Below, in pieces: positions 31,645 through 53,610 of a DNA stretch of 64,000 nucleotides. Made by a program: the position numbers and the translations under genes. The stretch's first letter is position 1. Every line of letters begins with the position of its first letter. The notes beneath the pieces were generated by a model. It saw only the letters and a list, made by a program, of their open reading frames with translations. It ran no database searches and was not told where the DNA came from. This stretch comes from Candidatus Latescibacterota bacterium (GTDB lineage Bacteria; Latescibacterota; UBA2968; UBA8231), in contig OY730476.1 in assembly GCA_963422735.1 (NCBI GenBank), positions 1,216,001 through 1,280,000 on the forward strand. Direction: 5' to 3'.

Positions 31645-32433
31645 CTACTCGTCGAGATTGCCCTCTATGACAATGCCTCCGGCCACTAGCTGTTCGGCAA
31701 GAATCTGCGCGGACCCGGTCGGCAGGCGAGCGTTGTTGGTGACGATCACGTCGGCCCCCACGTAGCGGACGCCGCGCAACCCGTCCAAGCTTTGCAGCGC
31801 ACCGTTGCTGCTGACTTCCAAAAAGTCTCGCACTCTAGCTAAGTAGTGCAGGCCCGTTAGGCTTTGCAGCGCGTCGTTGAACCAGATGTCCACGCTGCCT
31901 TCGATCTCCACGAGGTGCGGCATGTCCGTCAGGAACGCAAGCGACTCATTGCGGACGAGTGCCAAGCCCCCGCTAACAGAGACCAAATTCTCCAACCCTT
32001 TGAGCGAGCGCAGAGCCTTGTTTTCAAATATCAACAGCCCTTCCACTACGTGAGCAGCTTTGCCGGCCACGGGCGTAGGTAAGAGCGGTGGTGCGGTCGC
32101 CGGACCTAGCCCCGCTCCGACGCTTGCAAGCCCTTCCAGCCCGGCTAGGCTTTCCAAGCGGTCGTTAAACCAAATCTCGACGCTGCCCTCGACGCGCCTC
32201 AGCCCTTCCAAACCCGTCAGTGCAACTAAGCTGCTCCCGACGATCTGCAAGTCGCCGTCGATGATGTAAGCAGCGCCCCCTCTTTCTCCAAGAGCAGCGA
32301 TATCGGCCAGCGACGCAATGACAATGCCCTCTTCCAAGACGACCGGTGCTACCAGCCCTTTGCCACAGCCCGCCAGCGCGACGAGCAACGGCGCGATCGC
32401 CCGTTCAAAAATCCCGCGCACACCGAAACCCAA
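31645..32433 (-). CDS. Receptor-L-domain/LRR-like lipoprotein
   Basis: Lipobox 'VALAGC'. Repeats of about 25 aa such as 'LTGLEGLRRVEGSVEIWFNDRLESL' and 'LKGLENLVSVSGGLALVRNESL'. The start is uncertain (32433 or 32421). Confidence 0.75.
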   Translation of the reverse strand: MGFGVRGIFERAIAPLLVALAGCGKGLVAPVVLEEGIVIASLADIAALGERGGAAYIIDGDLQIVGSSLVALTGLEGLRRVEGSVEIWFNDRLESLAGLEGLASVGAGLGPATAPPLLPTPVAGKAAHVVEGLLIFENKALRSLKGLENLVSVSGGLALVRNESLAFLTDMPHLVEIEGSVDIWFNDALQSLTGLHYLARVRDFLEVSSNGALQSLDGLRGVRYVGADVIVTNNARLPTGSAQILAEQLVAGGIVIEGNLDE

Positions 32434-33232
32434 TATCTATATCGGTCAACAGAGGATGATAGGCTTCCCGATTCGCCGCGGGCAGGGACTCCTTCTCAAA
32501 CCACCACGACCCACCCCGCAACACCCCGAATTTGCCGCGCAGCGGACCCGGCGGATTGTCCCGTGGACTCTCTGCATAGTAGGTGTCCCCGTACCAATCG
32601 GATACCCACTCCCACACGTTCCCCGCCAAGTCGCGTGCCCCGTACGGCGACGCGCCGGCAGGACGGCTACCCACCGGCTCGGTCGCTCCGGCGATAAAGC
32701 GAAAGTTGGCCTCGTCGCCTACCAGCACGTATCCCCAGGGATACGTGCGCCCATCGGTGCCGCGCGCGGCCTTCTCCCACTCGGCCTCGGTCGGCAGCCG
32801 CAGGCCAGCCCACGCGCAATAGTCGAGTGCGTTTTGGCGGTTCGCGCAATTGATGGGATGGGTGTCGTCTATGGCTTTGTCCCAGTTGCAGTTAGGAGCG
32901 TAGGCCGGCTCTTTGCAGGCATCGTCCTCCACGCAGCGCCGGTACCGTCCTACGGTGACTTCAAACTGGTCGATGTAGTAAGCGGAAAGAAAAACTTGGT
33001 GCGGCGGCTGCTCGTCCGGGTCGCCTGCGTCCCAACCCATCACAAAGAGACCTTCGGGCACGAGGACCATGGCGTGATTGGCTTTGTTGACCTCGGTGAC
33101 CTCGGTGACCTCAGTGGCCGGAGCCTCGCCGGGCGGAGCGGGCGCAACTGCGCGATTTTCGCTTACTTGCCCCGGGTCCTTTTGGCCGCAACCAAGTGCC
33201 CACAGGGCCATGCACACCAGTGCGCGGCTCAC
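32405..33232 (-). CDS. FGE-sulfatase (SUMF1/GldK-type) domain lipoprotein
   Basis: Lipobox 'WALGC'. Motifs 'RLPTEAEWEKAARG', 'DLAGNVWEW', 'VLRGGSW' and 'IGFRC'. Confidence 0.9.
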   Translation of the reverse strand: MSRALVCMALWALGCGQKDPGQVSENRAVAPAPPGEAPATEVTEVTEVNKANHAMVLVPEGLFVMGWDAGDPDEQPPHQVFLSAYYIDQFEVTVGRYRRCVEDDACKEPAYAPNCNWDKAIDDTHPINCANRQNALDYCAWAGLRLPTEAEWEKAARGTDGRTYPWGYVLVGDEANFRFIAGATEPVGSRPAGASPYGARDLAGNVWEWVSDWYGDTYYAESPRDNPPGPLRGKFGVLRGGSWWFEKESLPAANREAYHPLLTDIDIGFRCARDF

Positions 33233-33244
33233 CGTGTGGCCCCC

Positions 33245-35236
33245 TCAGAACACGACCTGCGACACGGCCTTGGAAATCAGCGCAATGGCAATGGACGTCA
33301 TGCCGATCAGACCCACGCCACATGAGTACCCAGCCAGCACGATGGGCGCGTACGCGTACCAGCGCTCGGGGCCAAAACGCTTTTGCAAATAGAAGCGGCC
33401 CAGCAAGGCACCGACGAAGTTGAGGATGGCAAAGTGCGGCCAGCCGCCGAGACCGGCGACAAAACCATAGAAGATTCCCAGCGGTGCGCTGAGTGCGCTC
33501 AACAGCGCGTACAATGCGCCGCTAAAGGCTAGCCCAACCCCGATGTAATCCCAGCGAATGATTTGGGTCACCAAGCTCTGACCCGCTCCCGGTAGAGTTG
33601 ACTTGGCCCAGAACGCCTGCATGGTGGCGTGGAAGGGCCACATCTTTTGCACAAATGGGTACGCCGAGGAGGGAATTGGTCCGAGCTTCCATATCAGAGA
33701 CCAGAACAGGAAGCTGCACGCGAACATGACGGCCAAGGTCAGGGCCGTCATCTTGACGATGCTGCCAAATCGGGTGCGCGTCAGATCTAGCTGCTTGAAC
33801 ACTTGCGCCTCGTAGCCCCACTGGAAGATCGGCACGGGCGCGAACCAGATCCCGGCCCCTTGGTAGCCGGACAAATAGAAGCTGGCCTCGCGCAGATAGG
33901 GGAAGGTCACTCCCTGCGGCGATCCGGTCAGGCCGATCATCCGCGTACCGATGTACGAGTAGATCGGCGTCCACACAAAGCCGAAGAGCGCGGTGATCCA
34001 CCAAGGAAAATCGGGCACCAAATAGTACACCATCAGCACGAAGCCCAACGTACTCACCGCCCAGATCCCCAAGGCCATGACAATGCGGATATCGCCGCGC
34101 TCGGGGCTAGGTCCCCGGTCAGCTTCCCGAGTCGGGGCGCGCCCCTTGCCGACGGCGAGCAAGACCTTGCCCGCCGTATAGAAACCCATGGCCGCAACCA
34201 CGATGGCCCCCCCCAGCGAAAAGCTCAGCCAGAAGTCAAAGGTATTGGCGATCTGGGTAGGGATCGACGACATACCCGGCTCCCAAGTGTGCAGGATGCC
34301 GTAGGCATAGAGGATCGGGTTGGCGACCAAGTTGACCAATATCGACGAGGAAAACACCCCTACTACGACCCAAAACGGCAGCACCAGGCCGAATAGCACG
34401 TGGATCAAATCCGTGGCCAAGCCGATGACTGCGGCGGGCAAAACCGCCTTTAACGGCACGGTGAAGTCGATGAAGGGAATCGGCAAAATCGACACGGTTT
34501 CGGTCAAAAAGACCGACGACAGCGTGGGCACCACCACGTAGAATATGCCCCACACCGCCCCGATAAAGGCCCCGGTGCTGAACACGTGCCAGCGCCAGCC
34601 CTCCTGCTTGGCCGAGGTCTCGGCGAGGGCGGTGGCGCCGCCGGCCTGCACATAGGCCATGGGAAAGGGCAAGCGCTCGATGTCGTGAGTGATGCGGAAG
34701 AGCACGTAGCCCAACGACAGGGCGTTGACCCTCTGTAGTGCAACGGCGCAGAGGAGGATGGCGATGGGCTTAAGCCACGCGCTGTCGAGGAAGCTGCGCT
34801 CTAAGAGTGCCTCCGAGCCACGCGGGGGCACGACCCAAGTTGGAATGTGTTCGGCCAGTCCGTCAGCCTGGGGCGATTGGATCAGATATTGATCCCAGAT
34901 CAACACACCGAATGGGCCGCCGAAGAGGTCGGCCCCCGTGCCCAGCTTGCCGCCCATCATCACCAAGCCGCCGGCCACCCAGTAGAGGATGATGATCTCC
35001 TGAGTCCGCAGGGATACGAAGGTGCGCTTGGCCATTTCGATAAAGAGGATCAGGGTCACCCATTCGGCCCCCCCGGCCATGCTCATCCCGGTCACCAGCC
35101 CGAGGTAAATCGCGCCCGGCAGCATCACGAAGCCGACGAAGAGCGCCGCCCACAGGGTCTTTGCATTGAAGCCCGGTTCGAACGGGGCGTTGGCGGGCAT
35201 AACCGCGAAGCGCTCTTGGGCGTTGGCCTGTGCCAA
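33245..35236 (-). CDS. OPT-superfamily-like 'peptide transporter' membrane protein
   Basis: 663 aa with many TM segments. Motifs 'PGAIYLGLVTG', 'DIERLPFPMA' and 'PIPSSAYPF'. TTG start after AGGGGAG. Confidence 0.7.
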   Translation of the reverse strand: MAQANAQERFAVMPANAPFEPGFNAKTLWAALFVGFVMLPGAIYLGLVTGMSMAGGAEWVTLILFIEMAKRTFVSLRTQEIIILYWVAGGLVMMGGKLGTGADLFGGPFGVLIWDQYLIQSPQADGLAEHIPTWVVPPRGSEALLERSFLDSAWLKPIAILLCAVALQRVNALSLGYVLFRITHDIERLPFPMAYVQAGGATALAETSAKQEGWRWHVFSTGAFIGAVWGIFYVVVPTLSSVFLTETVSILPIPFIDFTVPLKAVLPAAVIGLATDLIHVLFGLVLPFWVVVGVFSSSILVNLVANPILYAYGILHTWEPGMSSIPTQIANTFDFWLSFSLGGAIVVAAMGFYTAGKVLLAVGKGRAPTREADRGPSPERGDIRIVMALGIWAVSTLGFVLMVYYLVPDFPWWITALFGFVWTPIYSYIGTRMIGLTGSPQGVTFPYLREASFYLSGYQGAGIWFAPVPIFQWGYEAQVFKQLDLTRTRFGSIVKMTALTLAVMFACSFLFWSLIWKLGPIPSSAYPFVQKMWPFHATMQAFWAKSTLPGAGQSLVTQIIRWDYIGVGLAFSGALYALLSALSAPLGIFYGFVAGLGGWPHFAILNFVGALLGRFYLQKRFGPERWYAYAPIVLAGYSCGVGLIGMTSIAIALISKAVSQVVF

Positions 35237-35239
35237 AAA

Positions 35240-36946
35240 TCACTCCCCTCGTTTGCGCTCGTCGTCCAAATACCGCAGGTGCTCTTCGTACACGTCTATC
35301 TGCTCGGCGTATTTTTCGTGTAACTCCCGCAGATAGCCATTGAAGTACTCCCGCTCGATGCGCTCCCGCACGTCCCGCACCACCGCATTCCGCACCTGCT
35401 TTAGCTCTAGGCCTTGATAAATCTCTGGATATCGTTCGATAACCCGGAAGATAGAATAGCCTCCCCTCGTTTGGATCGGCCCTTGGAACTGGTGCAACTC
35501 GGCGTTCATCACCGCGTTCATCCAAGCCTCCCCCAAAAAAGGGGCCTGTGACTGGGAGACGTACAGGAGGCCATCTTCGGCGTCGCGGCGCAGGCTGTGG
35601 GCGCGGGCCATCTCCGACCACTCGGCACCCGCCTCAATCCGGGCCGCGATTTGGCGTGCCTCGCTTGGGGTCTCGAGCAAAATTTCCTCTAATTGCGCGT
35701 GGGGAGGGCTGCGGAAGCGTTGCTTGTGCTCCTCGTAGAAGGCTCGTAGATCGTCCTCGGTCGGCGCGGGAGCCTCTGCCAAAATTTGCTCGCGCAGTTT
35801 TATCAGCGTCAGGTTGCCCAGCGCCAAGACATGAGACCGCGCGAAAGCCTCGGTTTTATCGAGGCCCTTGCGCCGGGCATCGTGGGCCATGATGCGGGTG
35901 GGGAAATGGCTCTCAGATAGTTTTTCGTTGACCGCGTCGGCTGTGGCTTCCGGCCACAATCGGCCCGATGGCTGCACGGCCTCTAAGACCTCTGCTGCAT
36001 CCATCTGCAAGCCCTCGAAAGCATAGACTGGATGCTGGCGCTGGGCCTGGTCCAAATCTGCATAACGGACCGCCCCCTGTAAGACGCCTACTACTATATC
36101 CATGCCCTCGGCGTCAAAAACCGTGTCCAGATCCCATTTGAGGTGCCGCAGGTACGATTCGCGCAGTTGCTTTTGCTGCTCGTCGCCGAGTGCCTCGCGG
36201 ATCCCGTCTTCAACCTCGACCAATGCAGCGCGGCGACGCTGTGCCACTTTGGCAATGACGAATCCTCCGTGCAAGGGGAGTGGCTCAGTAACGCCGCCCA
36301 CGGGCAGGGCGAAGACCGCTTGCACTAGGTCGCGGGGGCTGTCAAAGGGCGAATAGGCCAGCCGCCGGATTTCGCCGGTGTGTATGCCGTAATAGGGGTC
36401 GGCGGCGAATTGACGACCTGCTTCTGCAAAGTCCTTGCCTTGTGCCAAAAGCGCTTGTACCTGACGCGCCTGTTCCCGATTGGGCACAAAAATCTCCATA
36501 GTAACGACTTTTTCTCCCCACCCCGGCCGCGCGTAGGCTTTTTCGATGTCGTCCTCGGTCACCACGACCTTGGCCGCGACGTTGCGCCGCAACATTGCGT
36601 CAGCGAGGGCCTTGGTTTCGCGCTTGGCGAGTTCGGCTAAAACCTCTTCGTCGCGCTGCAAACCCCGCTCGTTGGCCTCCAAAAGCAACACCTCGCGGTC
36701 AATCAGCGTCTGCAAGTTGTCCCGGTGCTGCAAGCGCATGGCGGCCGTTTTGAGATTGGCCTCAAAAGTGTGCAGATCGGCCGCGGTAATCTCGACCGCG
36801 CCGACCTTGGCCAGCAAGGCGTCGGCCGGCCGATCATCGCCACAGCTAATGCAGGCCCCGACTAGCAGCCCGGCCAACAGCGATTTGTGTATAAAAAGAG
36901 GAGCTAGACGGAAGGTCCAGCTCCTCGCAATGAGATATCCTGCCAT
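35240..36946 (-). CDS. SurA/PrsA-like parvulin peptidyl-prolyl isomerase with two PPIase-like domains, probable lipoprotein
   Basis: 'LAKVGAVEIT', 'LIDREVLLLEA', 'GKDFAEAGRQF', 'GAEWSEMARAHS' and 'GPIQTRGGYSIFRV'. Possible lipobox 'CISC'. The start is uncertain (36946 or 36985). Confidence 0.8.
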   Translation of the reverse strand: MAGYLIARSWTFRLAPLFIHKSLLAGLLVGACISCGDDRPADALLAKVGAVEITAADLHTFEANLKTAAMRLQHRDNLQTLIDREVLLLEANERGLQRDEEVLAELAKRETKALADAMLRRNVAAKVVVTEDDIEKAYARPGWGEKVVTMEIFVPNREQARQVQALLAQGKDFAEAGRQFAADPYYGIHTGEIRRLAYSPFDSPRDLVQAVFALPVGGVTEPLPLHGGFVIAKVAQRRRAALVEVEDGIREALGDEQQKQLRESYLRHLKWDLDTVFDAEGMDIVVGVLQGAVRYADLDQAQRQHPVYAFEGLQMDAAEVLEAVQPSGRLWPEATADAVNEKLSESHFPTRIMAHDARRKGLDKTEAFARSHVLALGNLTLIKLREQILAEAPAPTEDDLRAFYEEHKQRFRSPPHAQLEEILLETPSEARQIAARIEAGAEWSEMARAHSLRRDAEDGLLYVSQSQAPFLGEAWMNAVMNAELHQFQGPIQTRGGYSIFRVIERYPEIYQGLELKQVRNAVVRDVRERIEREYFNGYLRELHEKYAEQIDVYEEHLRYLDDERKRGE

Positions 36947-36981
36947 ACGTATTATCCAGATGCAGAAGCAGCGCCGGGAAC

Positions 36982-37734
36982 TCAACCCGCTCCGTCCGCT
37001 CTGGCCCTTTCCCTCGTTCCTTGGTCCACCGCAAAGCGGAACTCAATGTCAATGGTCTCTTCCGGATTGCCGCTGGCGTCAAACGAAAGCACAAATTCGC
37101 GGAATGTGAGCAGCAACTCGTCGTTTTCCGGTAGCAACGGGTCGAAGACCAACATGCCTTTTTGGCTGCTATCGCGGAAGATGGGGCGATGGCGGTGAAA
37201 GACCGTCTTGTAGATAATGCCCATGCGCTCCAAGTTGATTTCGCGCTCGTTGCCCGAAGTGCCCAGCTCCATTTTGTAGTACTTGGTGAAGCTGTTGCCC
37301 CCCAACACGACGGCCCCCTCGCGCCCGGGATCGTAGTAGCGATAGGTCTCGCCGCCCGATTCCATGGTCGCCTTGGCCGGATCGAATTCGATCTTAGCAT
37401 AGGTCTTGTTTATGACCTCGACTTCAAAAACGGTAAACTGCGGAGGGCTGTAGCCCCTTTCGGGATCGATGTCGCCCCGGGTGTAGGGGTTGACGTGGCG
37501 ACCGTCGTACAAGGGCGGGAAGCGCTTGTTGAGCTCGGGATCGCTCAGGTGCCGCACCTTGATCAAAAGCCCCTCTTTGCTAAAGACCATCGAGTTGTCG
37601 TCTGGGTCAATAGTGTAATCGCCGCGGCCCTCTGGCAAAACGGGCATCACGTGCAGGTCGTACACGAGTTGGGGCGGCACCAGCCCCCCGCAGCTCCAGA
37701 CCAGCCCAAGCAGCGCCATGTACCTTGCTGTCAT
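36982..37734 (-). CDS. Uncharacterised lipoprotein, paralog of 48771-49538
   Basis: Lipobox 'LVWSC'. RBS AGGGAG. Motif 'YSPPQFTVFEVEVINKT...FDP'. Confidence 0.8.
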   Translation of the reverse strand: MTARYMALLGLVWSCGGLVPPQLVYDLHVMPVLPEGRGDYTIDPDDNSMVFSKEGLLIKVRHLSDPELNKRFPPLYDGRHVNPYTRGDIDPERGYSPPQFTVFEVEVINKTYAKIEFDPAKATMESGGETYRYYDPGREGAVVLGGNSFTKYYKMELGTSGNEREINLERMGIIYKTVFHRHRPIFRDSSQKGMLVFDPLLPENDELLLTFREFVLSFDASGNPEETIDIEFRFAVDQGTRERARADGAG

Positions 37735-37765
37735 AAAATTGCCACTCCCTTTTTGCTAGCTGTCG

Positions 37766-38185
37766 TCAATTGGTTGGTTCCTCGGTTTCAATGTCGATCT
37801 GTTCTACGCCCGCCATGGTGGCCGCTTCCATCGCGTCGATGATGTGGCCGTGCGCAGCATCGGCGTCTGCGGTGATAATCAGCGTCGATGAGCCGCTGCG
37901 GACCTTCTCGCGCTCTAGCCAGCTCGCTAGCTGCCCCATGGCTACTAGCTGCCCATTGATCTCGATCTGGCCCTCGCTCGAGATGCGCAGATTCAGCTTC
38001 TTCTCTGCCTTGAGCTGGTCGTAGTGGACCGAATCGGGCAGCTCGATCTTGAGCTGAGTAGCCTTGACGAAGACCGTGGTGGTCATAAAGAAAATCAGTA
38101 GCAGGAACACCGCGTCTATCATCGGCGTCAGGTTCAGTTCAAATTCGCCGGCTTTTTCGGCCAGCGACTGTCTCCGTTTAGCCAT
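37766..38185 (-). CDS. exbD: ExbD/TolR family protein
   Basis: 'LNLTPMIDAVFLLLIFFM' retains the TM Asp. 'IITAD...HGHIIDAM'. Confidence 0.92.
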   Translation of the reverse strand: MAKRRQSLAEKAGEFELNLTPMIDAVFLLLIFFMTTTVFVKATQLKIELPDSVHYDQLKAEKKLNLRISSEGQIEINGQLVAMGQLASWLEREKVRSGSSTLIITADADAAHGHIIDAMEAATMAGVEQIDIETEEPTN

Positions 38186-38190
38186 GCCGC

Positions 38191-38610
38191 TTATCCTTCT
38201 CCGCTCTTGGCGAAAGCGATGGCCTCAATGCCCTCGCCGCGGGCGATGTCCATCACCTGCACCACATAGAAGTGAGGCACGGAACGCGCGGACTCCAAGA
38301 TCACGTTCTTGGTGTTATCGGCTGCTATGACTTGGCGAATTTTTTCCGCCAATCTCGCCTTATCCGTGACCTCGCCGTTGACTTGGATCGTCTGATCTGG
38401 GTCAATCACGATGTTCATGTCCTTGGTCGCTCTCGACTCGCCTTCGCCGCCCGGCAGATCTACGCTCAGACCCTTGGGGTTGACGAAAGTGGTCGCCACC
38501 ATAAAGAAAACCAACAGCAGGAACATGCAGTTGATAAGCGGGGTCAGATCTGGATTCTCTGTGGTCTTGAAGGCACTTTTGCCGAATCCGCTCTTTCGTC
38601 TCTGCTGCAT
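38191..38610 (-). CDS. exbD: ExbD/TolR family protein with the TM Asp replaced by Asn
   Basis: 'PDLTPLINCMFLLLVFFMVAT' and 'VVQVMDIAR'. Confidence 0.88.
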   Translation of the reverse strand: MQQRRKSGFGKSAFKTTENPDLTPLINCMFLLLVFFMVATTFVNPKGLSVDLPGGEGESRATKDMNIVIDPDQTIQVNGEVTDKARLAEKIRQVIAADNTKNVILESARSVPHFYVVQVMDIARGEGIEAIAFAKSGEG

Positions 38611-38628
38611 AGCAGCGTCTCTTTCTGC

Positions 38629-39303
38629 CTAGCGGCCCTCCTGCTGGCCAGCTTGAAAGCGCACCAGCAGGGTATTGGCGAAGGCGTGGCAATACAGTTC
38701 CACGCTCTTGAAGACCTTTTCCGCACGACCGGAGAGATAGCGATGGAAGACGATGGTCGGAATAGCGACGATGAGACCACTGGCCGTAGTAATCAGGGCC
38801 TCGGAGATGCCGCTGGCCACGGCCGCCGGATCGCCGGCCCCGGCGCGGGCAATAGCGTCAAAGGCGTTGATCATACCCATGATCGTGCCCAACAGCCCCA
38901 TCAGCGGGGAAAGGACGCCAATGGTTCCGAGCGCGTTGAGCAGACGGCCCAGATACATCTCGCCGGCCTCCTCAGTGACCAAGATCAACTCCTGGCGCAT
39001 GTCCTCTAGGTCCGTGCGATTTTCCAGCACTAAGGTGTCGTAGCGCTTCACCAAGGCGGCGAAGATGAAGTTGAGCACACCGCTGCCCTGCCGGAATAGC
39101 TCGATGGCCCCACCTTCGCCTTCGCTTTTGAGCATGTCTTCTGCCTCGTTGAGCTGCTGTTCGGCCTCCTGTTCGCCCGGGACCATCAGCAGGCGCCACA
39201 GCCGTTCTATGATGATGGCTAGGGCGATCAACAAGCAAAGCAACATGGGCCACATCATCGGCCCGCCTTTGAAAAACTGGTCAACTAAAAAATTCTGCTC
39301 CAT
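38629..39303 (-). CDS. exbB: ExbB/TolQ/MotA proton-channel protein
   Basis: ATG at 39303 follows GGAGG. Motifs 'GGPMMWPM', 'SPLMGLLGTIMGMI' and 'GISEALITTASGL'. Confidence 0.93.
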   Translation of the reverse strand: MEQNFLVDQFFKGGPMMWPMLLCLLIALAIIIERLWRLLMVPGEQEAEQQLNEAEDMLKSEGEGGAIELFRQGSGVLNFIFAALVKRYDTLVLENRTDLEDMRQELILVTEEAGEMYLGRLLNALGTIGVLSPLMGLLGTIMGMINAFDAIARAGAGDPAAVASGISEALITTASGLIVAIPTIVFHRYLSGRAEKVFKSVELYCHAFANTLLVRFQAGQQEGR

Positions 39304-45559: not shown

Positions 45560-45610
45560 GGCAGCTATCCTCATTCAGTATAGAGATTTCGTCTTCAGTC
45601 GCATTCCAAC

Positions 45611-46471: not shown

Positions 46472-48113
46472 AAGTGCCTCGGCGCGCCTTGCCGCTTTCT
46501 TCTATTCTAACCTCGTACAGATAGAGCCCCGGCTCGACAACGCGACCGCTCCCATCGCGACCGTCCCACTCAAACTGATAGGTCCGGGCACTTCCGGTCT
46601 GCGCCAACTGGCGAATCGGCCGACCGGTCAAGTTGTAAATTTTTAGCACGACTTCCCGGCCCTCTTCGATGTTGCCGACGACGAAGACAAAGCGCGCATA
46701 CTCGTCCGCAAACGGAGAGAACGGGCGCGGCTGCACCTGCACCTCGCCCAAAAGCTGCAACGGCGTTCCCCCAGCCAGTACCGTCCAAGTGGCACCCGGC
46801 ATTTCCCGCCCCTGCTGCCAGTTGACGTAGCCGTCTCTGTCGCCTTGGGCCTTGTTGCCGGCTTCGAAGCGCATGGCGGTCTTGTCGCGCACAAAGAGCG
46901 CCTGTCCCTCAATTTCGACGGTCGCCATCGCGTTGATTTGCTCGCTAGGTACAAGCTCTATCAGCATCCCCTCCCGATCCGGCGTCGGACCCCAAGTATA
47001 GCCTTCTGTGGACACGAGTTCTCGACCATCGACGCGCACGGCTGTTACGCTGAGCAAGGGGCCTTGTACGCGCAAGAGATCGACCCCGTAGTCATCGACG
47101 CCAGCCGCGATTTCCACTCGGTAGATCAACGTTGCTTCCTCGCCCTTGCGCAGCGAATCGGATGCGACCACCTCCGCCATGAGCTGTTGGGCGACCAAGA
47201 CTGGATCGTAGTCAATGGCGATGCGCTCGAGCGCCGGGCTGACAAAGGGGGCCGAGTTCGTCAGGCGGGCCCGGTACGCCAACCGCGCGACCGGCTCGTC
47301 CCCGCTGTAGAAAAATTCCCCGTCCGTGTGTGCCGCCAAGCTTCCCCAAGGCACTTCTGCTCCCTCTGCGGCGGTTCCACGCACCTGCAATTCAATGCCC
47401 GTGCGCTCCGTGCGCTCTACTTGCCAGCGTATCTGCCCCACGTTGACCGGGGTAGGCGGGGCGAAGCTATCCTCTATGAAGCCTTCGCTAACGTAGCCCG
47501 CGCCGAACACCTCGATTTCCCCGATGGCGACCCAGTTGCTGCGGTCTTGGCGGATCAGCGTCAGCCGCACGAAGCGACCCTCTCGCGGGATCGCCTCACC
47601 GCGCTCGTCGGTTATGGCCCAAGTAGAATCTGCACTCGTATCTACGTTGAGGACGAAATTGTCCGGCTGTTCCGCCAACAGGTGCCAGACTTGCGGCGCT
47701 GCTTGGGTGGCTGTTTCAAGCCTGTACCCACGCACGAAATACTCGGGCTGGCTCAGCGCTGTCTCGCCGGCTAGCACCCGCACCCGCTTGATCGCCCGGT
47801 CCAGCCCGAGATCGACGGTAAACTGCTTGTCGAACACGTGATTGGTCCCCGAAATCCACTCGCTCCGCACGAGATCAATCGCGCCGTCGGTTAGGGGCAC
47901 AGGCTTGTCGAAATCGTCTATCACCGATCGTCCTAAGGCCACGTTTACATCCTCGTCCAACTGTGCCAGAATGACGAGGCTATCTGGATGCACCCGTACT
48001 CCTCGGGTCGTTCCCAAGGCAAATGTTTCGACCGCGTCCACTACCCAAGTCTTTAACTCAGCACGGCACGGACTGAATTCAAGCAAGAGCAAAAGTGCGC
48101 CCAGCCTCAGCAC
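46455..48113 (-). CDS. Secreted protein with a discoidin-like domain and a C-terminal FlgD-Ig/T9SS-CTD-like domain
   Basis: 'FTVDLG...GRFVRLTL...IGEIEVFG'. C-terminal 'PRPFSP...LKIYNLTGRPIRQL...WDGRDGSGRVVEPGLYLY...GTFVVAY'. Confidence 0.78.
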   Translation of the reverse strand: MLRLGALLLLLEFSPCRAELKTWVVDAVETFALGTTRGVRVHPDSLVILAQLDEDVNVALGRSVIDDFDKPVPLTDGAIDLVRSEWISGTNHVFDKQFTVDLGLDRAIKRVRVLAGETALSQPEYFVRGYRLETATQAAPQVWHLLAEQPDNFVLNVDTSADSTWAITDERGEAIPREGRFVRLTLIRQDRSNWVAIGEIEVFGAGYVSEGFIEDSFAPPTPVNVGQIRWQVERTERTGIELQVRGTAAEGAEVPWGSLAAHTDGEFFYSGDEPVARLAYRARLTNSAPFVSPALERIAIDYDPVLVAQQLMAEVVASDSLRKGEEATLIYRVEIAAGVDDYGVDLLRVQGPLLSVTAVRVDGRELVSTEGYTWGPTPDREGMLIELVPSEQINAMATVEIEGQALFVRDKTAMRFEAGNKAQGDRDGYVNWQQGREMPGATWTVLAGGTPLQLLGEVQVQPRPFSPFADEYARFVFVVGNIEEGREVVLKIYNLTGRPIRQLAQTGSARTYQFEWDGRDGSGRVVEPGLYLYEVRIEESGKARRGTFVVAY

Positions 48114-48114
48114 T

Positions 48115-48771
48115 TCAGAATAGCAGTTTCTGCGTCAGGCTGGTCACCACGGCAATGGCGAGAGCCTCCTCCAACTCCCTAGAGTTGAAGGTCATGACAA
48201 TGCCGGCATCCACTGGGCTTTTCTTGCTCACTTTGCCGGTTTTGAGATCCTTAACTGACACCTCGACCTGCACTCGTTGCGTTTGCGGGGAGAATACTTT
48301 GCGCACTCGCTGACTGGAAAGCAGAGCCGTACCGCTAATTTCCAAGTCGGCCTCGTCCGAGTCCGCTGACACCACCGCGAAGGGATTGTTCACTTGCCGC
48401 ACGCTGTCTTCGTCTAGCACCTCGACCCGATCCGTCTGCGTGAAAATCCGCACCTTGTCCCTGCGGAGTTCGCGCAACAAGGCCCCAGACAAATCCTCAA
48501 TGCGCGAAGGCCGAGTAATCTGCACCAAGCGATTTCCAGAGGTGGCGAGGGCATTAGTAACGTACTGGGTTCCTTGGCCACTAGCCGAATTGGCGGTCCT
48601 CGGATCGACCACGTTAGCCTTGCTCTCGACCGGGAATTCCTTGACGTATATTTTGACTGGCATCGACGGCGGGTTGGGCAAACTAGTGTCCTTGAGTGCC
48701 TCGTATCTCAAAGTACAGGCCATCGCGCCGCCTAGTAGCATCATCCCGAGGTATTTGACCATCTTTTTCAT
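48115..48771 (-). CDS. Uncharacterised lipoprotein
   Basis: Lipobox in 'MKKMVKYLGMMLLGGAMAC'. TAATG overlap with the upstream gene. Confidence 0.8.
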   Translation of the reverse strand: MKKMVKYLGMMLLGGAMACTLRYEALKDTSLPNPPSMPVKIYVKEFPVESKANVVDPRTANSASGQGTQYVTNALATSGNRLVQITRPSRIEDLSGALLRELRRDKVRIFTQTDRVEVLDEDSVRQVNNPFAVVSADSDEADLEISGTALLSSQRVRKVFSPQTQRVQVEVSVKDLKTGKVSKKSPVDAGIVMTFNSRELEEALAIAVVTSLTQKLLF

Positions 48772-49538
48772 TACTTATTCTCCACCCAACGCACTCCGTG
48801 ATCGACATTGAAGTCGAATTTCAAGTCGGTAAACTCCACCGGATTGCCGTATCCTACTTGAAACCGATCAAAGGCCAGAATGAAGTCGTTTACTTCGAGG
48901 GTGAATGACTTAGTCTCTACGGGCAGCGGTGGAAAGGTCAGCTTGCCGGCGTATCTGGAGCCTTTGCGTACGGGCTTTTCCCGGTGGTACTCGCTCTTCT
49001 CCCAAATCGGGTTGCGGTCCAAGCTGGCGTGATAGCGCACATTGCCTTCTTGCCCCCCCCACTTCAAATAGGAATAGTCGAAGAACTCGTCTTTGTCGTA
49101 CCAATTTCCCGTCCCTTGGCGGCAGAGCAATCGGCTGCCGTCGTCCAAGCGGATAATGGCCTGCGTGGGATCCAACTCCACCCGCTCTCGAGTGCGGTTG
49201 ATCACCGTCACTTCAAAAACGGTCCATAAGGGCGGCGTATAGTCCAAGCCGGGAATTTCGACTCCCGTGAGCGTATAGGGCGTGAAGCGGGGGTCGTATT
49301 CGGCGTCGAGCATGGCATCGTCGTAGAACTTGACCTTGACTTGCACCCCTTGCTCGCTCCACACGACCGAGCTATCGATCGGATCGATGTAATAGGTCTC
49401 CCCATCGGGCAGTTCCGGCTCCAACTCGATAACGTACTCCCGCTGCACATGCGATTCGAGGGATTTGAGAGTAGCGCACCCCCCGGCGGCCAACGCCAAG
49501 CACAGGAGGACGTGAATGTATTTTGCGATTGGTCTCAT
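48771..49538 (-). CDS. Uncharacterised lipoprotein, paralog of 36982-37734
   Basis: Lipobox 'AAGGC'. Motif 'YTPPLWTVFEVTVINRT...LDP'. Confidence 0.8.
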   Translation of the reverse strand: MRPIAKYIHVLLCLALAAGGCATLKSLESHVQREYVIELEPELPDGETYYIDPIDSSVVWSEQGVQVKVKFYDDAMLDAEYDPRFTPYTLTGVEIPGLDYTPPLWTVFEVTVINRTRERVELDPTQAIIRLDDGSRLLCRQGTGNWYDKDEFFDYSYLKWGGQEGNVRYHASLDRNPIWEKSEYHREKPVRKGSRYAGKLTFPPLPVETKSFTLEVNDFILAFDRFQVGYGNPVEFTDLKFDFNVDHGVRWVENK

Positions 49539-49543
49539 AGGCC

Positions 49544-52501
49544 TTAGAAGGGGGATATCAGCTCTACGAAGAGAATGCCTTGCTTGGAGTCGGGCCGCCC
49601 TGCATGGCTAAAGTCCCGCCGCGTACGCTGGTAGCCGAAGAATATCGAATTGTCGCGGATGCCAAAGTAGTCTGCGGTGATGCTCAGCATGGCCAGATAA
49701 TCGGTCTGGCTGTACGTCCCATCACCAAAGGCGCGATCCCAGTGCTTAAACGGCAGCAAGGGCAGCCCCTGCACGCCTAGCTGAAAGCTGGTCTTGGGCG
49801 TGAGCTTGTACTGCCCCATTACAATGGGGATGAAGTCGCTGTACGATTTCCGCGGCGTATCTTCGCTGTCAACCTGCTCAACGATCGTCCGATGCTTTAA
49901 CTTAGGCGTGACGCTGAAGGCACCCCAGCTATGGGTATAGTCGATCTTGTTGACAACGGAAAAACGCGAGCGCACATCTTGGGGCTGCAACAGCCCGCTG
50001 CCGTCTTCAAGCTCAATTTCGGCTTGGTTGTTGCGCTGCCACAGGAAGCCATTTTCAATGTTGAAGCCGCGCAAGCCCTGATAGGTGCTGTCAAAAAAGA
50101 GGAGATGCACAAAGCTGTCGCGCATCAACAGCTCGTCCGGCGTTGCCGGCCGCCAAAAGCCCGCGCGCTCGGGCGGGCCGTCCGGCTCGTTAAACCAGTT
50201 GATGACTTCGATATCGTCGATGGGCACTTGGTACACGTAGGTGTGATCCGGGGTGTCGTCTTTGACCTGCTTGGCGTCGAAGTTGATCCTCAATGCACCA
50301 ACGCCGCGCTTTTCCAACTCATAGGCGTAGCGGAAGTAAAGCCCTTCGGACTTGCCCGGGCCGGCGATCTGACGGTTGTCGTAGCGACCTATGCTGACGA
50401 ATTTACCCAAGCGCCCCAAGCGGTCGTAGCGGAGGAAGATGTGCTGGCCCTTTTGGTCGCGTGGATAGGGGTAGTCCGGCTTATCGTCGTTCTCGCGGAA
50501 GTCGGGTACGTTGTTGTTGTTGAAGTCGATGCCATAGACAAATTCGGGCGGCTCTGAATCATAGGTCAGAAAAGCCTCTTCCCAGTCGACGATGAAATTC
50601 TCGTTGCGGTCCATATCCGGGATGTTATCGACGTTCTCGTCGAGACCCGGATACACTTGGGCACTGGGAAAGCCCGGATACAGCGTACGCGGCTCGGCGG
50701 TAGCCGTATCGTTAGTGTGTTCGTCGGGGAAGCCGTCGTGATCGTCGTTGTCCTCGTGGAGGGGGAACTCCTCGGTGACCGTAGAGATTCTCTCGCCGGG
50801 AGCAGGCTGCCCATCGTAGTGGAAGGCCATGCCGCCTCGGTAGCTATCGTACCCGCCGCCGTAGTCAGGCTCCATGCGGTATATCTCGCCGCCCAGTGCT
50901 AGGCCGCCGGCTATATCCTTGACGCCCTTGACCCACCACGCAAAGGCGCGCTCGCTGCTGCGCTCGCCCTCGTTATCGCCGACCGGGAACATAAAATTCT
51001 GCAGGTTGTGCGCCACTTCGCCGCTGATATCTAGCCCTACCAAATCGACCTGATAGTTGACCGAGGCCAAACTCTGCCCGGTGGGAATGCCGTAATCAAA
51101 GGAGACCATCCGCCGATTTGCACCGCTGCGGTCGCTGCCATCGGCGCGGACAACGGTGTAGTAGATCTCCTCGTCTTCGTCTGTGTACCACTTGAACGGA
51201 CGCCGGATGGCCCGCTCGTTACCTTTAGTGATGGGGGCTGGCCAAGCTGCTTCGGTGATCGTCGCGTCGCCCCGACGACTGATATTGAAGAAGTCGTGGG
51301 TCTGGCTGACGCCGACCCGGTAGTCGCCGGCCACATCGGCGACAAAGCGCACCGAGCGCACCGTCGCGTCCGGCGGGAGGACGAAGGTGTACACCACCGG
51401 CACCTTGCCCTCGGCCTCGCGCCCGCCACCGGCGCGGACGGCACCGCCCTCGGGCGGCCCGGCTTCTAGCAGCGGGTCGTAGTCTGGGTCGTCGTCGAGG
51501 CTGGTCAGGCGCACCGGCTCTGTGTTGCGCTCGCCCTCGATGACGATGTCCACGCCATAAACAATGGCATTGGCCCGGGCGTCGTCGGGCGAGTCGTCGG
51601 CCACGAAGACGCGGATGGTCTTGGGGCCGAGCATCTCATAGGGCAAATCGCCGCGCCAAGCGCTGGTGCGCGACAGGGCCGGCGAGGCCATAATCTGGTT
51701 GATTAGCGTCCCGCCAACGCTGGCGAAGCGACCTACTTCGTGCTGATAGTGGCCGCCAAAGAGCAGCACTGGTGAGTTGTCCCAAGCGTCGTCGCCTTCT
51801 TGGCCAAACGCCCATTTGGAGAATAGCTGGGCACCGGAGTGATCGCCGCCGCGCGAGTAGAGCAGAGTCGCCCGGTCGCGCTCCTTGTAGTTGATGTCCA
51901 TGCGCAGCACGTTCAGCTTACTGCTGGTCAGCGTGAGCGGCGTGAAAATGGTGCGCACATCCGATCTTGTGGTCAGATGGCCCACAGTAGCGGTCCAGTG
52001 CAAATCCTTGTGAGTATAGTGGCCGACCCGGAACGACCGATACTTGTGGTCGATATAGCTATACGCACTAAAATCGTTGCCACTGCGCGACTCTTCTATC
52101 GTCAGGAGCCGCTGATAGCCGCCGCCCATGTAGTTGCCCATCCGGTCCCAACCCACGTTGCGGGTACTTGGCGAGCGGCCCGACGGGGCGGCCCAAGCAA
52201 CCGTCTCGCGGTAGTAAGCAATGTACTTTTCGTCGGCGTAGTTGAGATAGGGGACGTTGACTGCGGCGTTGAGGAAAGCCCTCTCCAGCCCTCGGTCATA
52301 GCGGTCTTGGGGACCGCGCAGAAAGGGGGGGCGCTTTTTCCACGGGGGATCTTTGGGCGTACCGGGAGTAGGGTCGTAATAGGGCAGCGGACCGGCGGAT
52401 TCGGGGTGGCGCTGCGCCTCCGCCGGCGCGGACAGGGCAACGCAAACTACTGATAATATCCCCACCCAGCACTTGGACACGACACTAATAAAAAACAGCA
52501 T
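49544..52501 (-). CDS. Uncharacterised ~985-aa secreted protein, probable outer-membrane beta-barrel (paralog 2)
   Basis: Signal peptide ending 'PAEAQ'. C-terminal 'ILFVELISPF'. Its motifs are colinear with those of 42641-45559. Confidence 0.75.
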   Translation of the reverse strand: MLFFISVVSKCWVGILSVVCVALSAPAEAQRHPESAGPLPYYDPTPGTPKDPPWKKRPPFLRGPQDRYDRGLERAFLNAAVNVPYLNYADEKYIAYYRETVAWAAPSGRSPSTRNVGWDRMGNYMGGGYQRLLTIEESRSGNDFSAYSYIDHKYRSFRVGHYTHKDLHWTATVGHLTTRSDVRTIFTPLTLTSSKLNVLRMDINYKERDRATLLYSRGGDHSGAQLFSKWAFGQEGDDAWDNSPVLLFGGHYQHEVGRFASVGGTLINQIMASPALSRTSAWRGDLPYEMLGPKTIRVFVADDSPDDARANAIVYGVDIVIEGERNTEPVRLTSLDDDPDYDPLLEAGPPEGGAVRAGGGREAEGKVPVVYTFVLPPDATVRSVRFVADVAGDYRVGVSQTHDFFNISRRGDATITEAAWPAPITKGNERAIRRPFKWYTDEDEEIYYTVVRADGSDRSGANRRMVSFDYGIPTGQSLASVNYQVDLVGLDISGEVAHNLQNFMFPVGDNEGERSSERAFAWWVKGVKDIAGGLALGGEIYRMEPDYGGGYDSYRGGMAFHYDGQPAPGERISTVTEEFPLHEDNDDHDGFPDEHTNDTATAEPRTLYPGFPSAQVYPGLDENVDNIPDMDRNENFIVDWEEAFLTYDSEPPEFVYGIDFNNNNVPDFRENDDKPDYPYPRDQKGQHIFLRYDRLGRLGKFVSIGRYDNRQIAGPGKSEGLYFRYAYELEKRGVGALRINFDAKQVKDDTPDHTYVYQVPIDDIEVINWFNEPDGPPERAGFWRPATPDELLMRDSFVHLLFFDSTYQGLRGFNIENGFLWQRNNQAEIELEDGSGLLQPQDVRSRFSVVNKIDYTHSWGAFSVTPKLKHRTIVEQVDSEDTPRKSYSDFIPIVMGQYKLTPKTSFQLGVQGLPLLPFKHWDRAFGDGTYSQTDYLAMLSITADYFGIRDNSIFFGYQRTRRDFSHAGRPDSKQGILFVELISPF

Positions 52502-52555
52502 GAAGACCCCTCGTGGCTCACCTTAGTATGAGCTAACTGAAAATCAACGGGCGAA

Positions 52556-52585
52556 AACATATGTTTGCCAAAGCTCGCGGGTCAA
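52556..52585 (-). promoter_or_regulatory. Possible weaker promoter for the downstream operon
   Basis: Minus-strand TTGACC, an 18-bp spacer and TATGTT, immediately after the terminator U-tract. Confidence 0.3.
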
Positions 52586-52586
52586 G

Positions 52587-52624
52587 AAAAAAAACGGGAA
52601 GCAGGCGTCAAGACCGCTTCCCGT
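52587..52624 (-). terminator. Rho-independent terminator after the CBM9-like gene
   Basis: Minus-strand sequence ACGGGAAGC-GGTCTTGACGCCT-GCTTCCCGT followed by a T run. Confidence 0.85.
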
Positions 52625-52653
52625 CTTTGTAAAACCTATCCAAAGTGCATTGA

Positions 52654-53610
52654 CTACTGGACGAAGGTCTCCTTTACTCGGCCCCAAGAATCTTCTTCGA
52701 CCGCGGTCCCTGTCGGGCCAGCCGGCGTATCCACAAAGACCCAGTTGGCAAACTCGGACATGTTGCCGCCCGCCCATGCCACGCACTGAATCTGGCCGCC
52801 ATAACCATCTTCGCCGTCGGAATCAACCGCCAGCCAAGTAAAGCCCATCTCAGAGCCAGCTGTGGGGGCTTCAAAGAGGTTACCGTTGCGCAGGAAGGTA
52901 TCCCATGGCAGCATGCCTTCAATCACGTAGTCGGCGTCGCCAGCGTCGCCAAATTCGTCGCCAGCGTCGCGGAAGCCGTATTCAAACCCCTCAAGCGCGT
53001 CGGGGTCGTGGACATCCACGCGCTGATTATCCACGGTGGTGATTAAACAGACAGACAGCTCGTTCGAGCCAAAGGGCAGGGCCATGAAGTTGACCACGTT
53101 CAGATTGACGTAGCTAGCCGGGGCCGGGTCGCCGCACGCGCAATCCTCGTTGTTCAGGTCGAGGTAGAGAGACATGCTGTCGCGCTCCCACCAAGCCCGG
53201 GCCTCACCGCCGCCCTCGGTGTCGCGGACATTATCGCTAACCTCGGTGATGTAGTACAGGGCATCGTCGTCCCAAGCCTGCAAGATCACCGAAGAAAAAT
53301 CGGCGTCCGTGCGCCCCTCGCCGGCTACTTCGGTCTCGCCGTTTTCATTGAGCTGGTTGGTACTGACTTCGCTGGACTCCTGCTCAATACTGCGCCAACC
53401 ATACTCTTGACCATCGAGCTGAATCTGGCTCGGCGAGCAGGGAAATTCTAGCGCACCAGCCCACTCGTCGGCAACTGTTGCGCGGTCGCCGTCGAGCGTG
53501 GGGGCTTGGGTGAACTTGGGCAAGTCGAAGTAGCGCACTGGCGGCTGGGCACTGGCCAGCGTAGTAAAGCAAAGGGCCGCGATAGCGGCCAAAAGAGCCA
53601 ACTTCTTCAT
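52654..53610 (-). CDS. Secreted acidic CBM9/DOMON-like sugar-binding protein with a C-terminal 'TAVEEDSWGRVK' tail
   Basis: Signal peptide ending 'ASAQ'. 'APTLDG...EW', 'AWDDDALYY...VSD', 'DSMSLYLD' and 'YVIEGMLPW'. RBS AAGGAG. Confidence 0.78.
   Translation of the reverse strand: MKKLALLAAIAALCFTTLASAQPPVRYFDLPKFTQAPTLDGDRATVADEWAGALEFPCSPSQIQLDGQEYGWRSIEQESSEVSTNQLNENGETEVAGEGRTDADFSSVILQAWDDDALYYITEVSDNVRDTEGGGEARAWWERDSMSLYLDLNNEDCACGDPAPASYVNLNVVNFMALPFGSNELSVCLITTVDNQRVDVHDPDALEGFEYGFRDAGDEFGDAGDADYVIEGMLPWDTFLRNGNLFEAPTAGSEMGFTWLAVDSDGEDGYGGQIQCVAWAGGNMSEFANWVFVDTPAGPTGTAVEEDSWGRVKETFVQ

Follow-up and report, generated by a model that had tools for sequence, protein, structure and literature searches.

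A motor-bearing operon with giant beta-barrels as a candidate outer-membrane uptake system of Candidatus Latescibacterota

Genes of the operon

[quoted passage not shown] The window lies in a single 4.95-Mb contig of a genome that we call G000. An original prediction had described a tightly spaced run of co-oriented genes at this place as a candidate envelope machine. The open reading frame (ORF) listing of the window bore out the run itself, which comprises 16 minus-strand genes from 53610 to 31645 with the domains given below.

From the BarA gene (49544-52501) through the last gene (31645-32433), neighbouring genes overlap or are separated by 47 bp or less. This spacing presumes that ExbB starts at the internal residue Met58 (38629-39303); its longest ORF extends to 39474. 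Upstream of BarA, a gap of 152 bp separates it from the CBM9-like gene (52654-53610). The region contains six promoter-like sites, compared with 0.9 expected from shuffled sequences, and a scan of the operon 3' end for a terminator and a promoter found none. The features are as follows; the lipoboxes were assigned by eye. TPR, tetratricopeptide repeat; CTD, C-terminal sorting domain; LRR, leucine-rich repeat; AF2, AlphaFold2; aa, amino acids.

53662..53690, minus strand: promoter-like site just upstream of the CBM9-like gene, TTGACA-17-TATTAT, 11/12 (consensus match only)
52654..53610, minus strand: CBM9-like secreted protein, 318 aa (Pfam CBM9_1, E 1.7e-9)
49544..52501, minus strand: predicted giant outer-membrane barrel A (BarA), 985 aa, paralog of BarB (no Pfam match at E<=10)
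48771..49538, minus strand: lipoprotein L255 of the L250 family, 255 aa, paralog of 36982-37734 (no Pfam or NCBIfam match)
48115..48771, minus strand: lipoprotein L218, 218 aa (no family match; single copy in the genome)
46455..48113, minus strand: CTD protein, 552 aa, with a CBM32-like lectin part, Ig-like domains and a sorting domain (FlgD_ig, CHU_C, AF2 model)
45611..46471, minus strand: small outer-membrane barrel of PorP/PorV-like type, 286 aa (PorV/PorQ and PorP/SprF in NCBIfam, both weak)
42641..45574, minus strand: predicted giant outer-membrane barrel B (BarB), 977 aa (AF2 model; fold match SlpA)
39351..42623, minus strand: TPR protein, 1090 aa, with a conserved N-terminal hydrophobic segment (TPR families)
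38629..39303, minus strand: ExbB/TolQ-family proton channel, about 224 aa from Met58 (Pfam MotA_ExbB, PF01618, E 3.5e-28)
38191..38610, minus strand: ExbD1, 139 aa, with Asn at the membrane Asp site (Pfam ExbD, PF02472, E 1.4e-25)
37766..38185, minus strand: ExbD2, 139 aa, with the membrane Asp kept (Pfam ExbD, PF02472, E 1.1e-29)
36982..37734, minus strand: lipoprotein L250, 250 aa (no family match)
35240..36985, minus strand: SurA/PrsA-like lipoprotein, 581 aa in the longest ORF, with two parvulin domains (Rotamase_2, E 2.8e-23; Rotamase, E 1.8e-12)
33245..35236, minus strand: OPT-like polytopic inner-membrane protein, 663 aa (no Pfam match; language-model look-alikes)
32405..33232, minus strand: FGE-sulfatase-fold lipoprotein, 275 aa (Pfam FGE-sulfatase, E 5.6e-51)
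31645..32433, minus strand: L-domain/LRR-like lipoprotein, 262 aa (Recep_L_domain, E 1.3e-5)
55131..56348, plus strand (divergent): DUF4159 protein, candidate energy transducer (Pfam DUF4159, E 1.3e-10; TonB-like layout)

Several of these proteins have no family match. Of the three unknown lipoproteins, L255 is a paralog of L250 (34% identity, E 4e-35). L250 has no family match in Pfam, in NCBIfam or among PDB sequences, and its look-alikes are only uncharacterised lipoproteins of Latescibacterota or Gemmatimonadota. Sequence searches of the PDB with the CTD protein, L250 and the CBM9-like protein gave only fragments of FlgD, C5a peptidase and CBM9; the last of these was a xylanase CBM9 matched by the CBM9-like protein (E 3.4e-4).

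For the label OPT-like, which the original prediction had given to the 663-aa membrane protein, the evidence is a language-model look-alike search. The look-alikes of this protein were 'peptide transporter family' clusters (score 0.97), in which 15-33% of the members carry the annotation OPT, but Pfam gave no match at E<=10, PF03169 (OPT) included. The genome holds five close paralogs of it. A BLASTP comparison with the DUF6785 protein gave an unconvincing match (E 0.005 over 95 residues). The window also encodes a DUF6785/DUF6784 polytopic membrane protein at 26959-28863 (minus strand, E 3e-102). By clustering, the OPT-like DUF6785/DUF6784 group has 41-46 members in the 4.95-Mb genome, which is an unusually large expansion. 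A literature search on DUF6785 found nothing.

Models of Plug, TonB_C, GldL/M/N, SprA, TolB and Pal had no match in the 16 operon genes or in the 18 of 23 flanking ORFs scanned. This agrees with the original prediction, which had recognised no GldL/M/N, SprA, classical TonB-dependent receptor, TolB or Pal in the window. An NCBIfam search with the DUF4159, 342-aa, two small-ORF, ASPIC and DUF6785 proteins returned nothing named.

Conservation of the gene set

We compared 49 related loci (one genome per species), the ORFs of which were labelled with the 16 window proteins; the flanks of these loci end before the L-domain gene. The order CBM9-BarA-L255-L218-CTD-PorP-BarB-TPR-ExbB-ExbD-ExbD-L250-PPIase-OPT-like, in which PPIase (peptidyl-prolyl isomerase) denotes the SurA/PrsA-like protein, is kept down to 57% BarB identity and is identical in every locus long enough to show the neighbours. 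The L218 gene is likewise retained across the syntenic loci. That is, the gene set named in the original prediction behaves as a conserved unit in relatives.

ExbB-ExbD-ExbD lies between the TPR gene and L250 in 33 of the 39 loci that show both, and three of the loci without it (L095, L098, L100) are of a triple-barrel, paralogous type. Distant families of the phylum carry related arrangements. One genome with a single barrel match (G017) has CTD-PorV-like-barrel-TPR1100-ExbB-ExbD-ExbD-DUF4159, and another (G015) has CTD-PorV-like-three barrels-TPR1182-ExbB-ExbD-ExbD-L250. These two arrangements indicate that the motor-bearing form is the minimal and widely kept one. A further family, represented by G009, has cassettes similar to those of G000.

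Giant barrels occur in 71 of 121 phylum genomes, and two families are wholly without them (0/29 and 0/13). The TPR protein of about 1090 aa was found in none of five genomes that have SprA but no barrels (E<=1e-20). Judged by its distribution, the TPR protein goes with the giant barrels and not with SprA.

RNA contigs of relatives, 90-95% identical to the window, cover 29-30 of the 30 bins of 33611-53610 in all four metatranscriptome runs, which come from four studies. They span the junctions L250-ExbD2-ExbD1, ExbD1-ExbB-TPR, BarB-PorP, PorP-CTD-L218 and L218-L255-BarA; the depth is low at about 35.6-36.9 kb.

These results bear on the possibility that the genes are chance neighbours, that is, porin-like barrels and a T9SS cargo pair that lie beside a generic motor of the Tol or Ton kind and share no function with it or with each other. 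Some loci do have barrels without a motor, and one locus of G000 (1953334-1960888) has a motor, a TPR gene, L250 and a PorV-like barrel without a giant barrel. Nevertheless, gene order persists across wide divergence and into distant families, the genes overlap or lie close together, and the RNA contigs bridge their junctions. We regard chance neighbourhood as highly improbable.

The giant barrels

BarA and BarB are paralogs with 35% identity (E 2e-155), as the original prediction had supposed of two proteins of about 980 aa. Neither has a single match in Pfam at E<=10 or in NCBIfam at E<=0.01. Their homologs in a collection of 5.8 billion proteins are all annotated 'hypothetical' and come from metagenome-assembled genomes labelled Latescibacteria, Handelsmanbacteria or Gemmatimonadetes. 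When a profile of 49 members was run, 1171 representative clusters among 1.84 billion were found at E<=0.001 and 819 at E<=1e-10, which means that the barrel family is small and lineage-restricted. In these searches, the giant barrel and L250 are covered by no family model.

The AlphaFold2 model of BarB (pLDDT 77.4, pTM 0.78) is nearly all beta. Read from the DSSP string of the model only, the long strands number at least 24, not counting two inserts at about 238-411 and about 540-666. The second insert is rich in Asp and Asn and contains most of the invariant columns of the barrel family; by eye, two of its loops appear to fit the EF-hand calcium-loop pattern.

BarA and BarB were considered as TonB-dependent receptors and rejected, since neither a Plug nor a 22-strand receptor signature was seen in Pfam at E<=10. 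The receptor model PF00593 has 14 matches elsewhere in the same genome, so it works here. By the BarB model, then, the proteins of about 980 aa are predicted to be giant beta-barrels of an undescribed family, neither ordinary TonB-dependent receptors nor non-barrel enzymes, and the barrel-like nature given in the original prediction held.

The closest fold is that of SlpA of Deinococcus, a trimeric protein (PDB 8ae1, 7zgx) that is also a very large beta-barrel. Foldseek ranked it first for the BarB model (E 2e-10, TM 0.17), and an independent structural aligner also placed SlpA on top (7zgx_A, Z 13.7, rmsd 5.8, 368 aligned). The next matches, at Z 8-12, are porins, TonB-dependent receptors, LptD and ushers, and PgaA (Z 11.4) and PelBC (Z 10.2) are also listed.

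SlpA is linked to the S-layer, and the fold match raises the alternative that nothing is transported: SlpA-like barrels would anchor a T9SS-delivered coat, with ExbB/ExbD and a CpoB-like TPR protein working in a Tol-like manner to hold that heavy outer layer in place. In addition to the fold, one barrel homolog (P0020) has a weak match to SlpA_C (PF21620; 22.7 bits, cut-off 35). On the other hand, the TM value is just 0.17 and generic porins are close behind, the window barrels have no SlpA_C match at E<=10, Pfam found no SLH or OmpA-type wall-binding domain in the giant barrels, and SlpA differs from them in that they form a multigene family. We consider a coat or tether unlikely, and its other points are weighed below with the motor and the genome-wide loci.

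The surface protein and its secretion

The AlphaFold2 model of the CTD protein has pLDDT 88 and pTM 0.76. Residues 52-207 resemble CBM32 modules (best 4zxe_A, Z 15.5, rmsd 2.1, 125 aligned), and beta-sandwich domains follow this lectin-like part. Residues 454-552 resemble the CTD of PorU (6za2_B, Z 13.0, rmsd 2.1, 95 aligned) and that of PorZ (Z 11.7). In sequence searches, FlgD_ig was matched with E 3.3e-7 and 30.6 bits (cut-off 27) and CHU_C with E 5.9e-4, and TIGR04183 reached 18 bits, below its cut-off of 23. The CTD assigned in the original prediction is borne out by the FlgD_ig match and the PorU/PorZ fold, and the surface protein of the window is predicted to be a CBM32-type lectin with a PorU-like CTD.

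The adjacent small barrel scored 44.7 bits with the PorV/PorQ family (cut-off 90) and 17.6 bits with PorP/SprF (cut-off 90.55). Docking of the CTD to it was predicted with ipSAE values of 0.86, 0.86 and 0.87 (best of three controls 0.00; partner pLDDT 83; contact agreement 98%), a mark that was reached by 58 of 80 solved complexes and by 2 of 110 mismatched pairs. Because PorV-cargo complexes have already been solved, the result may mirror a likeness to those complexes and not binding.

The pair matches a known pattern. In the accessible text of Gorasia et al. (2022; PMC9143113), a T9SS type B cargo is paired with a PorP-like anchor and PorE; here too a small PorP/PorV-like barrel comes after a CTD protein, a TPR protein that may be a periplasmic partner is nearby, and docking is predicted. 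The differences are that the small barrel of the window is below the PorP and PorV cut-offs, that the fold of the CTD is PorU-/PorZ-like, that OmpA-type PorE domains are missing from the window, and that the pair sits in an operon with a motor and giant barrels.

SprA/Sov, PorU and PorV are not encoded within the window and were found elsewhere in the genome: SprA in a 2140-aa frame (611.5 bits summed), PorU with 632 bits (cut-off 420) and, adjoining PorU, a PorV/PorQ-family protein with 237 bits (cut-off 90). Ordinary T9SS parts, a translocon and a sortase, are thus available to the CTD proteins. A search for a motor around SprA and PorU turned up nothing but LptF/G, PorV and an M6-like T9SS protein. 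The last of these, beside PorU-PorV at 2049544-2052339 of G000 (L116:6544-9339), has 931 aa and scored 277.8 bits with the model 'T9SS-dependent M6-like inactivated metalloprotease' (cut-off 600).

The original prediction had framed the operon as a T9SS-like machine, and in a variant of this idea ExbB/ExbD would replace the GldL/GldM motor while the giant or PorP-like barrels serve secretion. Two kinds of evidence speak for such a variant. GldL/GldM (TIGR03513, TIGR03517, PF12081) had no match at E<=1 in the genome, and GldM was found in 0 of 41 phylum genomes compared with SprA in 116 of 121 sampled, although the GldL/GldM searches included no positive-control genome. The operon itself combines CTD cargo and a PorP/PorV-like barrel, to which the CTD is predicted to bind, with an FGE-fold lipoprotein and with a TPR protein. 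The last two parallels failed on closer inspection. As GldK/PorK the FGE lipoprotein scored 77.4 bits against a cut-off of 350, and as PorW/SprE the TPR protein scored 106.2 bits against 250 and has no N-terminal lipobox cysteine; both assignments were rejected. Moreover, the module does not follow the translocon, since the TPR protein is missing from 5/5 barrel-less genomes that bear SprA, and the barrels are missing from 50 of 121 genomes in a set where SprA is so nearly universal. The 34 barrel paralogs described below are also ill-suited to a core secretion part. We therefore abandoned the T9SS-like framing, which we judge very unlikely in its motor-replacement form as well, with SprA, PorU and PorV encoded elsewhere and the barrels and TPR protein not tracking the translocon. 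What we kept is the T9SS as the delivery route for the surface proteins of the operon.

As for earlier reports, the accessible text of two T9SS reviews (PMC11205867, PMC11285876) says that a T9SS may exist in other FCB phyla and nothing further, and that of TXSScan (PMC4793230) gives a complete T9SS in Bacteroidetes only. A literature search linking 'Latescibacter' with 'type IX secretion' found nothing.

The motor and a candidate transducer

ExbB and both ExbD proteins pass the Pfam thresholds with the E values listed above, in line with the original prediction, and the TonB-less motor is stable, distant families included. In NCBIfam the exbB/exbD equivalog cut-offs were not reached; the best matches were TolQ for ExbB (86.3 bits, cut-off 221) and TolR for the two ExbD proteins (55.5 and 61.4 bits, cut-off 127.3).

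The two ExbD proteins differ at the membrane site. ExbD1 has Asn in 34 of 36 orthologs, the misses being a shifted ORF start (L053) and a Tyr beside the Asn (L090), and ExbD2 has Asp in 36/36. This conservation of unlike residues suggests that ExbD1 and ExbD2 form a fixed heterodimer. A paralogous motor of the genome (2316006-2316835) has Asp in both ExbD proteins.

As to a TonB partner, the genome has four TonB_C genes, all outside the window, one of them beside a fourth ExbB-ExbD-ExbD set. L250 was considered as a TonB and rejected, being a lipoprotein with neither TonB_C nor any family. TolA, TolB and Pal were not recognised in the operon. In a genome-wide search, no protein exceeded the TolB cut-off of 343 (best 104.6 bits, from PD40 repeats); Pal was sought in the window only.

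The TPR protein passes the YbgF/CpoB model TIGR02795 with 214.6 bits (cut-off 90.1) in seven repeated stretches and contains BamD-type units (125.6 bits), and its architecture, with 1090 aa, is unlike that of CpoB, which has roughly 260 aa. Its N-terminal hydrophobic segment is conserved in orthologs and has no cysteine. The gene always adjoins barrels and ExbB in the loci compared. In the closest paralogous locus (370958-374418 of G000), the long TPR gene is present as two overlapping ORFs of 759 and 432 aa and may be frameshifted.

These features recall Tol-Pal with CpoB/YbgF, as the best, though weak, motor matches are TolQ and TolR and the TPR protein consists of YbgF/CpoB-like units. They would also suit the coat or tether mentioned above, as would the lack of a TolB over the cut-off. 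Against both likenesses, the TolQ and TolR scores are far below the equivalog cut-offs. Unlike Tol-Pal, the locus is tied to giant barrels and T9SS cargo, with no recognised TolA, TolB or Pal. The gliding complex Agl-Glt of Myxococcus likewise has a TolQ/TolR-type motor encoded together with outer-membrane barrels and several TPR proteins, and no classical receptor. The window proteins, in contrast, match no Glt family model in NCBIfam, and T9SS cargo and giant barrels are not Glt parts.

The likeness to the Ton system lies in adjacent ExbB and ExbD genes, in many barrel paralogs with few motors and, in relatives, in a membrane-anchored protein with a Pro/Lys-rich linker in the tonB position. 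The locus differs from it in lacking TonB_C, in having larger barrels with no plug or receptor signature and two unlike ExbD proteins (one with Asn), and in the added TPR protein of about 1090 aa and the L250 lipoproteins.

The protein in the tonB position is of the DUF4159 family. The original prediction had named the gene at 55131 as a possible partner of the motor, and the candidate gained support. Read from its sequence, the DUF4159 protein (55131-56348) combines a single hydrophobic helix with a basic N-terminus and a linker rich in Pro, Lys and Arg, and its paralogs in the genome have the same layout, which resembles that of TonB. At another locus of G000 (1953334-1955824) DUF4159 comes directly after ExbD, a further DUF4159 gene is three genes from the ExbB gene at 2316860-2317606, and in G017 DUF4159 follows ExbD-ExbD. 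From metagenomes, 80 DUF4159 relatives were kept, which gave 35 loci of at least 6 kb. ExbB and ExbD are present in 9 of these loci and a giant barrel in 15. In 7 of the 9 motor-bearing loci DUF4159 stands directly after ExbD on the same strand, and in all seven L250 is downstream of it, with a giant-barrel gene between them in L177. A literature search for DUF4159 yielded no functional paper, only the Pfam database article.

Three DUF4159 genes of G000 (355243-356583, 363590-364933 and 1714574-1715897) have identical or near-identical N-termini over 130 residues, and the last falls into two ORFs, suggestive of a recent duplication in which one copy is broken.

Barrel loci across the genome

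The genome has 34 full-length giant-barrel paralogs in 24 loci, often in tandem. For each protein family of the operon we counted how many of the 34 barrels have a member within five genes, and the counts were compared with those around random genes (1000 draws). A CTD protein is near 34/34 barrels (random 6.0, maximum 13), a CBM9-like protein near 24 (random 2.0), a SurA-like parvulin protein near 19 (random 2.3), a TPR protein near 18 (random 3.9), and L250 and DUF4159 near 9 and 7, respectively (random 0.9 in both cases). The CBM9-like family has 27 copies in the genome and the SurA-like family about 30 paralogs. In the surroundings of the 34 barrels, linked T9SS surface proteins number roughly 60, SurA-like lipoproteins 30 and OPT-like membrane proteins over 40.

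Two cassettes recur: CBM9-L250-CTD-CTD-CTD-barrel-PPIase and CBM9-CTD-CTD-CTD-barrel-barrel-PPIase. Among the 125 CTD proteins of the genome, 77 share one body family. In the 49 CTD proteins that were scanned, the only domains other than the CTD are F5/8-type-C (discoidin, CBM32-like) and, in a single protein, FG-GAP. The 81 other neighbours include DUF6785/6784 membrane proteins, FG-GAP/ASPIC proteins, DUF4159 proteins, permeases and enzymes of small-molecule catabolism, and permease and small-molecule catabolic genes stand beside several cassettes. Within the window, an FG-GAP/ASPIC (UnbV) protein (58037-59716, plus strand) adjoins a 436-aa TPR protein (59927-61237, minus strand), and this pair recurs beside at least seven other barrel cassettes of the genome.

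Since most of the 24 barrel loci are without a motor, a shared energiser seems indicated, as does an expansion of the kind seen in nutrient uptake. The Sus utilisomes of Bacteroidota are comparable in that many paralogous loci each combine an outer-membrane barrel with surface carbohydrate-binding proteins. They differ in several respects: no SusC-type TonB-dependent barrel and no SusD were reported here in the operon, the 49 CTD proteins or the 81 neighbours, the surface proteins are T9SS cargo and not lipoproteins, and SurA-like and OPT-like genes are present instead of glycoside hydrolases, which were not seen.

The genome-wide picture also bears on two rivals. CTD proteins within five genes of every barrel suit a coat anchored by the barrels, but 24 stereotyped loci with lectins, permeases and catabolic neighbours resemble substrate specialisation and not one coat. 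The other rival is polymer export, in which a TPR protein and a barrel would act as in AlgK/AlgE, PelB, BcsC or PgaA and the polytopic membrane protein would feed the pathway. A TPR gene stands directly beside a barrel in many loci (the 18 of 34 barrels above), PgaA and PelBC are among the fold matches, and none of our results fixes the direction of transport. Set against this, no glycosyltransferase, synthase or cyclic-di-GMP receptor was found in the operon or the 81 neighbours scanned, it would be unusual for one genome to hold two dozen paralogous export systems, the CBM32 and CBM9 surface lectins suit capture better, and the membrane protein resembles peptide transporters. Polymer export seems to us quite improbable.

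Proposed mechanism

Taken comprehensively, we propose, tentatively and somewhat short of calling it probable, that the operon is the motor-bearing core of a Latescibacterota-specific outer-membrane uptake system that is Ton-like but independent of TonB. We infer that ExbB/ExbD, DUF4159, the TPR protein and L250 form its energising part. The ExbB/ExbD motor would use the proton-motive force to act on the giant barrels; coupling would run via the DUF4159 protein, and the TPR protein would serve as a scaffold in the periplasm. Through the T9SS (SprA, PorU, PorV), the lectin-like proteins would be put on the surface, where they could capture glycans or glycoconjugates, and the giant barrels, with their conserved Asp-rich segment of calcium-binding look, would admit the substrate. 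The SurA-like lipoprotein and the OPT-like permease may handle the barrels or the substrate en route to the cytoplasm. The 20-odd cassettes without a motor of their own would draw on this one in trans, just as a single TonB system serves many TonB-dependent receptors.

The system probably imports nutrients. We favour import because of the ExbB/ExbD motor, the few motors for many barrels, the CBM32 and CBM9-like lectins, the two dozen stereotyped loci, and the permease and catabolic genes nearby. The original prediction had left the choice between secretion or surface assembly and import driven by the proton-motive force; its conserved unit, its non-TonB barrels and its TonB-less motor stood, and its T9SS-like framing did not.

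Several points weigh against this uptake proposal. The motor is missing from three orthologous loci (L073, L075, L088) and from all three G009 barrel loci fetched, which means that the barrels are not always accompanied by a motor in cis. The Asp essential to ExbD of E. coli is absent from ExbD1. No DUF4159 was seen near the motor in G015, and the coupling roles suggested for DUF4159 and the TPR protein were read from gene position and layout. The OPT-like protein is weakly enriched near the barrels (8/34 versus 2.8, with a random maximum that is also 8), and the genome-wide counts depend on our own longest-ORF gene calls. None of the 81 unlabelled neighbours scanned has a glycoside hydrolase or lyase domain at E<=1e-5, whereas Sus-type loci do contain such domains. 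The RNA contigs come from relatives, prove no single transcript and leave DNA carry-over possible. The direction of transport, finally, is inferred.

A stronger form of the proposal goes further. That is, ExbB, ExbD1 (Asn) and ExbD2 (Asp) with a DUF4159 transducer, a TPR scaffold, a new class of giant calcium-binding barrels for active transport and T9SS-delivered lectins in the place of SusD might constitute a third route, besides TonB and TolA, by which the proton-motive force reaches the outer membrane, serving nutrient uptake throughout the phylum. We put this forward as a doubtful but possible extension.

Other genes of the window

Several features of the window lie outside the operon. 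Positions 18001-22000 have a GC content of 0.48-0.53 compared with about 0.6 around them and contain an N6/N4 DNA methylase gene (19828-21678); this part may be a foreign or restriction-modification island. The GC content of the first 2 kb is 0.456. At 6064-13714 (plus strand), two AcrB-family RND pump genes (1040 and 1122 aa) come after an HlyD-type adaptor gene; the second of the pump genes has a SecD/SecF-like C-terminal match. A 1583-aa protein at 22275-27026 (minus strand) has as its sole match an FtsX-like permease domain near residues 1300-1412. Two adjacent NHL-repeat beta-propeller proteins (422 and 374 aa; 29250-31639, plus strand) converge on the operon 3' end.

Biological meaning

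The Latescibacterota are widespread and uncultured. In the accessible text of Youssef et al. (2015; PMC4454575), outer-membrane uptake in Latescibacteria is described as consisting of porins and classical TonB only. We place the present operon with the Ton- and Tol-like envelope systems driven by the proton-motive force and with locus-encoded uptake complexes, and there is a real chance that it defines a transducer and a receptor class that are both new. It further makes one ask what powers the T9SS of a phylum with near-universal SprA and no GldL/GldM match (the GldM search having no positive control). If our proposal is true, it would establish a receptor family not described before, add a new energy transducer to those of ExbB/ExbD motors, and provide names for the 'hypothetical' families giant barrel, L250, DUF4159 and DUF6785/6784. 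It would also mean that T9SS cargo can act as the surface-binding arm of an uptake system.

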